This document shows, piece after piece, positions 1,190-3,276 of a stretch of 21,300 nucleotides of DNA (positions within the stretch are counted from its first letter, which is position 1; each line of letters opens with the position of its first letter). Where the stretch lies: assembly GCA_905250055.1 (NCBI GenBank), contig CAJNOF010000289.1:125844-147143 (forward strand). The letters are read 5' to 3'. This DNA is from Rotaria sp. (lineage: Eukaryota). The position numbers and the translations under genes are program-made. The notes beneath the pieces are model-generated. The model was not told where the DNA came from and made no database searches. It saw nothing but the letters and a program-made list of their open reading frames with translations.

Positions 1190-1771
1190 ATGATAAATAA
1201 ATATTTGATTATCGATTGTATTAAAGGATTAAAAATGTTATCAAATGATTCAATACAATGTATCATAACTTCTCCACCATACAATAAACTTGGTCTACGA
1301 CAAGGTTGTCCATATAATGGACAAATAATTTATGATACATATGATGATAATATGAATGAAATTGAATATCAAAAAAATGGCAATGTCAATTTTTAAATGA
1401 AATAAATCGTATTTTAACACCTTCAGGTTTATTATTTTATATTCATAAAGATCGACGATATTCTCATTGTGATTATCCTCCAGAACAGTTTATATTTCGA
1501 AGTAAATTAAAATTATATCAAACAATTATATGGGATCGAGGTTCAACACCTAATCAAAATAATTCTTATTTTCGACCTAATCATGAAAAAATTTTTTGGT
1601 TAACTAAATCTTCATCTAATATATCATTACCACCTAAATATTATCGTGATTGTCTACCAGAATATTTTAAAGGTGCAATTTGGAAAATTAAACCTGATCG
1701 AAAAAATAAACATCCAGCACCATTTCCATCAATTATTGCTGAAATTTGTATTTTAACAACAACTGATGAAA
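1190..1771 (+). CDS. N4CMT: Exon 1 of an N4-cytosine-type (beta-class) DNA methyltransferase, carrying motif IV SPPY and downstream motifs. There is a 1-nt frame break in the A7 run at 1371-1377.
   Basis: ATG at 1190. Translation is MINKYLIIDCIKGLKMLSNDSIQCIITSPPYN...EYQK[frame break]WQCQFLNEINRILTPSGLLFYIHKDRRY...RPNHEKIFWLTK...HPAPFPSIIAEICILTTTDE. SPPY (1271-1282) sits ahead of FxGxG, which is the beta-class motif order. The exon ends at a GTAAGT donor at 1772. Confidence 0.85.
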
Positions 1772-1961
1772 GTAAGTCAAGATATATATTTACAAAAAAA
1801 AAATCATTTCATGTCATTCAGAAAATATGATTCATTTTTCTCAATTACATTTTCAAATAGATCAGAACAATTTTTAAATATTGTATCCATAAAATCGAAG
1901 AGAAACTAAAGAGAATATTAAAATGTCAAGTTTTATTTCAATTTCATTGATCAGTGATATA

Positions 1962-2466
1962 AATCATTCGATAGAAAAAATTATTCTCTTTCAATCTATA
2001 CAAGGCCAAGCTCGATAGCTTGCTCCGTTTGGTAGCTATAGGTATTTTCCTGAGACCTCCGAAATCGACCAGGTGACGCGGAATCATCCTTAAAAGCATT
2101 ACATTATAGGTAAGCGACCATGCTGAATTCAGTGGTGATTTTTGTTTTTCATTTCAAAGTAACCTGAAATCATTATAAAATAGTTTTCGTAAATCTAGTT
2201 TTTGCTGCTATCTGGCTTAAAGAACACGTATATTGAAAATCTTGATACAGTGATCTCAAATTACTTTGAAATAAACAACAAACATCACCAATGAATTCAG
2301 CGTGGTCGATTACCTATAATGTAATGCTTTTAAGGATGATTTCGCGTCGCCTGGTCGATTTCGGACGTCTCAGGAAAATACCTGTAGCTACCGAACGGAA
2401 CAAGCTATCGAGCTCGGGCTTGTGTAGATCGAAAGAAAATAATTTTTTCTATCGAATGATCTAATT
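1962..2466. mobile_element. Foldback (hairpin) inverted-repeat element inside N4CMT intron 1. The arms are ~175 bp (1962-2137 and 2291-2466) at ~90% identity, separated by a ~150-bp loop.
   Basis: The reverse complement of 2291-2466 aligns base-for-base with 1962-2137, for example ...ccaagctcgatagcttgctccgtttggtagctataggtattttcctgagacctccgaaatcgaccaggtgacgcgg... Confidence 0.8.
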
Positions 2467-2496
2467 GAAGTTCAAAATCCAAAACCTATCTTCAAA

Positions 2497-2640
2497 ATGT
2501 CCAATGAGCTTTCATTCTATTGGTTCATTATTGACCAATGAAATTTTTCCATAGATTTACGTGCCACGGTGTTCGCTTTTTAATGGTGAAAACTGCAGCT
2601 CCATAGCTGCTTCTGTTCTTGAGTTATTCGACTTGCAATC
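2497..2640 (-). repeat. Copy of a dispersed repeat family. The second copy, in opposite orientation, is at ~20785-20905.
   Basis: The reverse complement of 2497-2640 (..gcagttttcaccattaaaaagcgaaca..atttcattggtcaataatgaaccaatagaatgaa..) aligns with 20806-20900 (..gtggttttcaccattcaacagagaaca..atttcattggtccaataagtgaccaatcaagtgaa..). Confidence 0.6.
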
Positions 2641-2713
2641 ACTCGCCTTCTATTTTGAAATAGATAGTAGTTCGAATTGTTGAAAAATAAATAGTTAAAT
2701 TGGTTTTTTTTAG

Positions 2714-2970
2714 AAGATGTCGTATTAGATCCATTTGCTGGATCTGGTACAACACTTATAGCTGCAAATAATTTGAAACGATCTTTTATTGGTTTTGATA
2801 TTAGTAAAAAATATCAAAATATGTTTAAACAACGATTGGCTAATTCAAGTGGTAAGATTCATCTCTGGGAAGAAATGTTTATTGTAGAAAAAATTCTAGA
2901 TCGTAGAATTAAAAATGGTTCTATTGAATATCTTCTCAAATGGAAAGGTTTTAATCATGATCAAAATACC
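2714..2970 (+). CDS. N4CMT: N4CMT exon 2: AdoMet-binding motif I, the end of the methyltransferase domain, and the N-terminal half of the chromodomain.
   Basis: Acceptor tttttttag at 2713. Translation is [86 protein letters not shown], followed by a GTAAGT donor at 2971. It is in phase with exon 1 (phase 1). Confidence 0.85.
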
Positions 2971-3147
2971 GTAAGTTCAATTTTTGTTTTTCTTGTTTTC
3001 TAAACCAACAGTTAAGTTAAAAAAAAAGTATTTGAAATTTCAAACAAAAATAAAACAGTCATTTTGAATATTATGAAACAATGTCATTATTAGGATGTGG
3101 CTCTTTAAGTGGAATAAATGCGAAATTTTTTGTTTTTTTTTATTTAG

Positions 3148-3276
3148 TGGGAGAACGAAACTAATCTGGATTGTCCAGATTTACTTGAACAATTTAAAAT
3201 ATCATTGAAAAAATACAAAAAAAAGAAACATTCATCGTCAAATAAAAGGTCTTTGGTTAAAATGTCATCAATAAAA
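3148..3276 (+). CDS. N4CMT: N4CMT exon 3: C-terminal half of the chromodomain plus a basic tail. A short terminal exon may follow at ~3398-3424, but this is uncertain.
   Basis: Acceptor ttatttag. Translation is [43 protein letters not shown], then a GTAAGC donor. WE..NLDCPDL is the canonical second half of the chromodomain. Confidence 0.8.

Follow-up and report, generated by a model that had tools for sequence, protein, structure and literature searches.

To our knowledge, N4CMT is the only writer of N4-methylcytosine (4mC) known in animals. The enzyme was named by Rodriguez et al. 2022 (PMC8885841), its biochemistry and crystal structure were described by Zhou et al. 2023 in the Journal of Biological Chemistry (PMC10406627), and Rotaria orthologs are already on record in both studies. 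Bdelloid N4CMT genes have five conserved intron positions and a first exon that varies between bdelloids (PMC8885841). The protein binds S-adenosylmethionine (SAM) through D88, D301, H253, S283, T285, and R313, flips the target cytosine against Y110 of its SPPY motif, and methylates N4, with a preference for CpG in YACGTR (PMC10406627). Cytosine-N4 methylation activity and 4mC are known for alleles of Adineta vaga only (PMC8885841, PMC10406627). In A. vaga, 4mC co-localizes with H3K9me3/H3K27me3 over transposons, from which the authors inferred targeting by the chromodomain and a feedback loop through SETDB1 (PMC8885841). Here, we analyzed a 21,300-nt stretch of Rotaria sp. DNA (contig CAJNOF010000289.1 of assembly GCA_905250055.1), referred to at its full length as the window. 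Judging from its sequence, the plus-strand locus at ~373/445 to 3699 is a Rotaria ortholog of N4CMT, in a copy that cannot yield the enzyme as assembled, a reading that we hold with a probability of about 93%. Striking as N4CMT is as a horizontally acquired epigenetic enzyme, the gene in the window belongs to an already-known family in an already-known host clade, and a further Rotaria copy brings nothing conceptually new; the one modestly useful point of the locus is that it may be a natural loss-of-function allele.

The assignment to N4CMT draws on profile, structure, and protein matches of the spliced, frame-corrected product. In Pfam, this product matched PF01555 (N6_N4_Mtase) with an E value of 1.5e-38 over residues 22-233 (profile positions 1-220 of 221) and PF00385 (Chromo) with an E value of 1.7e-17, both scores being well above chance level. 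Among solved structures, the best match was the A. vaga DNA cytosine-N4 methyltransferase (PDB 8S9M/8S9N; E value 5e-121, residues 2-247), followed by HP1/CBX chromodomains (CBX5, CBX1, and HP1; E values of 1e-17 to 1e-24) and, ranked after these, by CcrM, DpnA, M.RsrI, and M.PvuII. In a search of 5.8 billion proteins, the closest match was the 447-residue N4CMT of Rotaria sordida, at 89% identity, and the next matches came from Rotaria sp. Silwood1, R. socialis, R. magnacalcarata, Adineta steineri, A. ricciae, and A. vaga. PF01555 and PF00385 occur together in all the top bdelloid matches, and the fusion of methyltransferase and chromodomain is common to at least seven bdelloid species. After the bdelloid proteins came standalone bacterial SPPY methylases of 248 residues, with 45-49% identity. 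No protein identical to the product was present in the databases searched.

The residues that line the SAM-binding and active sites in the crystal structure are all identical in the frame-corrected product (D88, Y127, Y130, D132, W142, E211, H253, F257, F280, S283, T285, D301, I302, Y306, and R313). Motif IV precedes motif I, which is the circular permutation of the beta class, and the SPPY of motif IV (1271-1282) aligns to S107-Y110 of the A. vaga enzyme (PMC10406627). The first residue of this motif is Ser; the Asp or Asn of N6-adenine (DPPY/NPPY) enzymes was not found there. SPPY is present in all bdelloid orthologs, and among the nearest bacterial relatives examined only two proteins depart from it, with SAPY or SSVY. 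The chromodomain contains the aromatic cage residues F, W, and F. By these features the predicted architecture is that of an SPPY beta-class amino-methyltransferase of bacterial origin joined to an HP1-type chromodomain, in an intron-bearing resident eukaryotic gene.

Using the R. sordida protein in tblastn, we delineated a plus-strand gene of six to seven exons and five conserved introns, with canonical GT-AG boundaries throughout and a stop-free coding sequence once two A's are taken out. Homology to R. sordida added exons at 445-593, 967-1053, and 3586-3699 and a possible 5' mini-exon at 373-389. The N-terminal, bdelloid-specific exon (445-593) encodes IRCNRKSNRTIEIIDLNKDNDD…IEIEIK, ends at the donor AAG|GTCAGT, and is 75% identical to the R. 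sordida protein in tblastn; the position and phase of the intron that follows it are the same in three orthologs. The second N-terminal exon (967-1053), between a CAG| acceptor and an AAT|GTAAGT donor, encodes IPSNIIHTTSINKESSLSNDHYINKKKFN. The catalytic exon (1187-1771) encodes the N-terminal two-thirds of the methyltransferase, from motif IV to HPAPFP, ends in TTTDE, and aligns to PDB 8S9M. Its internal ATG at 1190 corresponds to the bacterial N terminus, and the frame from this ATG reads MINKYLIIDCIKGLKMLSNDSIQCIITSPPYN. A second stretch of the same exon, with W..F.NEINRILTPSG at ~1378-1430 and HPAPFP at ~1710-1727, reads KKWQCQFLNEINRILTPSG…KHPAPFPSIIAEICILTTTDE, up to the GTAAGT donor at 1772. 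Intron 3 (1772-2713; GTAAGT…TTTTAG, phase 1, 942 bp) leads into an exon at 2714-2970 that carries motif I (2722-2754), the remainder of the methyltransferase, and, beyond a short linker, the chromodomain's first half, and that is 257 nt long in all four Rotaria genes. Intron 4 (2971-3147; GTAAGT…TTTAG, phase 0) divides the chromodomain, the second half of which is encoded with a lysine-rich tail at 3148-3276, as recognized by homology to the R. sordida protein and by Pfam. Intron 5 (3277-3585; GTAAGC…TTTAG, phase 0) precedes the last exon (3586-3699), which encodes HKRKISSFTSSTDRRMVKRYCQYMDTSSSNDDND and terminates with TAA at 3697-3699.

We compared this arrangement with exon models taken from the R. 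sordida, Silwood1, and R. socialis loci. The intron positions and phases, given as alignment column/phase, are 50/0, 84/0, 281/1, 367/0, and 410/0; all five coincide between the window, R. sordida, and R. socialis. Silwood1 agrees at the first four introns, and its last lies 10 columns off, in a poorly aligned tail. The possible mini-exon consists of ATG and A14 followed by a GT donor and is homologous to a 13-nt first exon (ATG and A10) of R. sordida, which is itself an annotation prediction made in R. sordida only. The A14 version would splice out of phase; if the predicted exon is real, a difference in homopolymer length would disturb the frame here as well as in the catalytic exon.

A preliminary description of the locus, made from its letters, had confined the gene to 1190-3276 and had noted two GT-AG introns. 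The motifs do lie within that interval and both introns (1772-2713 and 2971-3147) are present, but three further introns, two upstream exons with the possible mini-exon, and one downstream exon had been overlooked. Its motif calls, namely the beta-class order, SPPY at 1271-1282, W..F.NEINRILTPSG, and HPAPFP, were all read at or near the same positions, and motif I, which it had put at ~2734-2754, is present. Direct reading together with the PF00385 match bore out its HP1-like chromodomain with an F/W/F cage, and the PF01555 and PF00385 profile searches that it had proposed both gave matches. It had also linked the architecture to bdelloid N4CMT, which the protein and structure matches proved correct. 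Its suggestion that the gene would be novel if the source were not a bdelloid fails because the source is Rotaria. Its view of a resident gene agrees with the five introns shared with Rotaria genes and with a GC content of 23-30% like that of the flanks. Overlooked altogether were a frameshift in the catalytic exon and a foldback repeat that inflates intron 3 to 942 bp.

The preliminary description had read the methyltransferase as one continuous frame, which it is not. The frame with ATG 1190 and SPPY runs to a TAA at 1394-1396, and NEINR through HPAPFP are in another frame, which opens only past a stop at 1363. The switch between the two falls in an A7 homopolymer at 1371-1377, where R. sordida has A5, within codons Q140-K141-W142. 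The resulting +2 shift falls just past motif IV, at W142, which contacts SAM; the stop lies 17 nt farther on. An intron that bypasses the frameshift was rejected. The motif EYQ(K/Q/R)W is gapless across the A-run in every ortholog aligned, and because no gap is needed to align the flanks EYQK|WQC with any ortholog, an intron cannot account for the frame break; nor was there a fitting GT..AG pair.

We consider a real, recent inactivating mutation of the window allele somewhat more likely (roughly 55-60%) than an assembly error (about 40%). Under the latter explanation, N4CMT would be intact and working, and A7 would be a consensus error for a true A5, or for A8 with an extra Lys. The lesion sits within a homopolymer, and consensus errors arise most often in homopolymers; an error that adds two bases to a 5-mer would be unusual, however. 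Three further observations argue for a real frameshift. First, an independent Rotaria contig, CAJOBT010044673.1, repeats four neighboring homopolymers (A6, T6, A6, and A10) in 1479-2097 with zero gaps. Second, 24 other runs of at least five bases in coding stretches of the window stay in frame. Third, two radical replacements, S159L and N163I, are confined to the window protein; the residues that they replace are the same in all of 15 other bdelloid and 16 bacterial homologs, and both sit on strand β3, just ahead of DNA-recognition loop 3E. The window protein further shows R119C, which falls in loop 2D, and P98S (numbered on the window protein).

Several findings weigh against a real lesion and are in keeping with an intact gene. 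No further stop or indel interrupts the remaining ~1.3 kb of coding sequence, and, as described above, the catalytic and SAM-binding residues are all intact. Outgroup-polarized counts gave no accelerated or relaxed substitution on the window branch (Fisher p = 0.76): changes in the two domains number 11 synonymous and 14 nonsynonymous on the window branch versus 7 and 13 on that of R. sordida, far under the neutral ratio of ~4:1 nonsynonymous to synonymous. The pairwise ratio of nonsynonymous to synonymous divergence (dN/dS) is 0.52 and is driven by the protein tails. In addition, no independent sequence spanning 1371-1377 was found among Joint Genome Institute (JGI) metagenome contigs or by exact-product look-ups. 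With the catalytic-exon protein as query, the JGI contigs returned only distant bacterial relatives (24-42% identity), and no exact match is on record to the truncated 68-residue open reading frame (ORF; 1190-1393) or to the two PARP4-like ORFs of the window. A long-standing pseudogene was rejected, because neither dN/dS nor the outgroup-polarized counts indicate acceleration.

The nearest relative of the window gene is N4CMT of R. sordida (CAF3664960.1/A0A818RYJ7; CAJOBE010000605.1). Exon lengths of 149, 87, 583, 257, and 129 nt are identical between the two once the frameshift is removed, and the alignment of window positions 140-4442 to R. sordida continues across promoter, introns, and 3' flank, with 75-92% of nucleotides identical and a synonymous divergence (dS) of 0.13. 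The two loci differ in that the R. sordida gene keeps an open frame, with A5, and has an intron 3 of 586 bp unrelated in sequence to that of the window, other downstream neighbors, and GSGST in motif I versus GSGTT in the window. The last of these differences sets R. sordida apart from the other bdelloids, which have GSGTT like the window; all of its alleles (five proteins) have GSGST, and T285, which hydrogen bonds the SAM carboxylate in A. vaga, is thus a Ser in R. sordida. By sequence, then, the window lineage is nearest to R. sordida and appears to be a distinct Rotaria lineage not yet annotated or sampled in databases.

The contig CAJOBT010044673.1 (621 nt) belongs to assembly GCA_905332295.1, labeled Rotaria sp. 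Silwood1, and is identical to window 1479-2097 at 615 of 619 positions (99.4%). It includes the start and left arm of the repeat in intron 3 and ends inside this repeat. The main Silwood1 N4CMT, by contrast, is only 73% identical. A second lineage, similar to R. sordida, has hence left a trace in the Silwood1-labeled assembly, as a contaminant or as a divergent copy. Two annotated N4CMT-like models of Silwood1 are without the SPPY region and motif I and keep the chromodomain, which suggests decayed or mis-modeled extra N4CMT copies in at least one Rotaria genome.

Such models raise the possibility that the window copy is a decaying extra paralog, with an intact N4CMT elsewhere in the same genome, an explanation that we regard as improbable. 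In its favor, Silwood1 has several N4CMT-like models, some shortened as described, and the sole near-identical public sequence is the 621-nt contig from an assembly with that label. Synteny with R. sordida also stops ~740 nt beyond the stop codon of N4CMT (window 4442, corresponding to 13903 of the R. sordida locus sequence L001) and gives way to a PARP4-like gene that was not found within 10 kb downstream of R. sordida N4CMT. Against a paralog, 4.3 kb of the window, promoter and introns included, run collinear with the one R. sordida locus, with the dS given above and no substitution excess. The PARP4-like neighbor lacks a close Silwood1 match (78%), which favors a different Rotaria lineage over a Silwood1 paralog. 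Bacterial contamination, or a chimeric misassembly of a bacterial methylase with a eukaryotic chromodomain gene, the latter listed in the preliminary description as a possible refutation, is rejected as extremely improbable: apart from the bacterial relatives of the methyltransferase no support for it was found, whereas one uninterrupted exon (2714-2970) encodes motif I, the methyltransferase C terminus, and the chromodomain's first half, so that assembly did not create the fusion junction, and collinearity with R. sordida, spliceosomal introns at five positions shared with three other Rotaria genes, flank-like GC content, and the recurrence of the same fusion among bdelloids all stand against it.

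If the frameshift is real and the source genome holds no intact allele, which we think improbable, this Rotaria lineage near R. sordida would be a natural N4CMT knockout. It would then stand alongside Didymodactylos carnosus, which is without the gene, yet be nested among N4CMT-bearing species, and a comparison of 4mC levels, transposon activity, and SETDB1 variants with R. sordida would directly probe the role of 4mC. N4CMT cannot be disrupted in vivo in bdelloids (PMC8885841); given this lack of genetic tools, a lineage with a broken N4CMT would amount to a free experiment.

How an intact enzyme of this kind would act can be projected from A. vaga. N4CMT is a bacterial beta-class cytosine-N4 methyltransferase that was acquired horizontally and was fused in bdelloids to an HP1/CBX-type chromodomain. 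By analogy with the A. vaga model in the literature, the chromodomain would bring N4CMT to chromatin marked by H3K9me3/H3K27me3, the SPPY active site would methylate cytosine N4 with SAM as the donor, preferably at CpG in YACGTR, and the resulting 4mC would mark transposons and tandem repeats for silencing, with 4mC-binding SETDB1 variants reinforcing the mark. A point against these functional claims is that chromodomain targeting in A. vaga was inferred from co-localization in chromatin and DNA immunoprecipitation (ChIP/DIP), not from direct binding (PMC8885841). For the window copy, what is seen here are the determinants in the sequence, from which activity and targeting would be predicted through the literature.

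These determinants closely resemble those of A. vaga N4CMT (PDB 8S9M/8S9N/8S9O), which likewise has a variable N-terminal extension, a beta-class N6_N4_MTase domain with SPPY before FAGSGTT, and a C-terminal HP1/CBX chromodomain with a basic/acidic tail, as well as the same SAM-binding and catalytic residues named above and the same five intron positions. In contrast, Adineta N4CMT proteins are only ~68-71% identical to the window protein, the window cage is F/W/F where that of A. ricciae is Y/W/Y, and the +2 frameshift, R119C, S159L, N163I, and a foldback-enlarged intron 3 distinguish the window copy from A. vaga. Bacterial type II beta-class N4-cytosine and N6-adenine methyltransferases (M.PvuII, 1BOO; CcrM, 6PBD) share the motif permutation, with DPPY in CcrM at the position of the N4-cytosine-type SPPY of the window, but they have neither introns nor chromodomain nor N-terminal extension and lie in a prokaryotic genomic context. 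The 50-residue chromodomain resembles those of HP1/CBX proteins (CBX5, 3FDT; Drosophila HP1, 1KNA) at the three aromatic cage positions; unlike theirs, it is joined to a DNA methyltransferase and not to a chromoshadow domain.

The length of intron 3 in the window, 942 bp versus 586, 441, and 82 bp in three Rotaria orthologs, reflects a foldback inverted repeat at 1960-2463. The repeat spans 504 bp, with two arms of 229 nt each (1960-2188 and 2235-2463) that are 88% complementary and enclose a 46-nt loop, and has a GC content of ~36%. Diverged fragments of the same family are present at 20747-21276. Folded as RNA, the repeat would form a 230-bp hairpin (−327 kcal/mol, z = −34). Its G:U-compatible mismatches number 8 on the plus strand and 11 on the minus strand, and both strands fold equally well. 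A hairpin RNA or microRNA precursor under RNA-level selection was therefore rejected, given the absence of a G:U strand bias and the equal folding of the reverse strand. Scanning the entire window for Rfam families and tRNAs gave no matches. The foldback is a MITE-like (miniature inverted-repeat transposable element-like) repeat insertion and is not evidence of a structured RNA.

Downstream of N4CMT, the window contains a multi-exon gene at ~4744-10503 (plus strand) that resembles PARP4 (vault PARP) and encodes PARP catalytic, VIT, and vWA domains. Its matches with a species name come from bdelloids (R. sordida, 83%; Rotaria sp. Silwood1, 78%, as noted; and D. carnosus, 61%), and its closest matches are metagenome proteins with up to 92% identity. 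An apparent frame break at 8362 was considered as a homopolymer error and rejected, as it is a clean GT-AG phase-1 intron. This 649-bp GT…AG intron (8362-9010) breaks the VIT/vWA exon, and the ORFs of two other bdelloid relatives run uninterrupted through FGS(G/D)NDECFP at this site. It has a GC content of 35% versus ~24% in ordinary introns here, has no other copy in the window, and may have arisen by recent intron gain or as an insertion competent for splicing.

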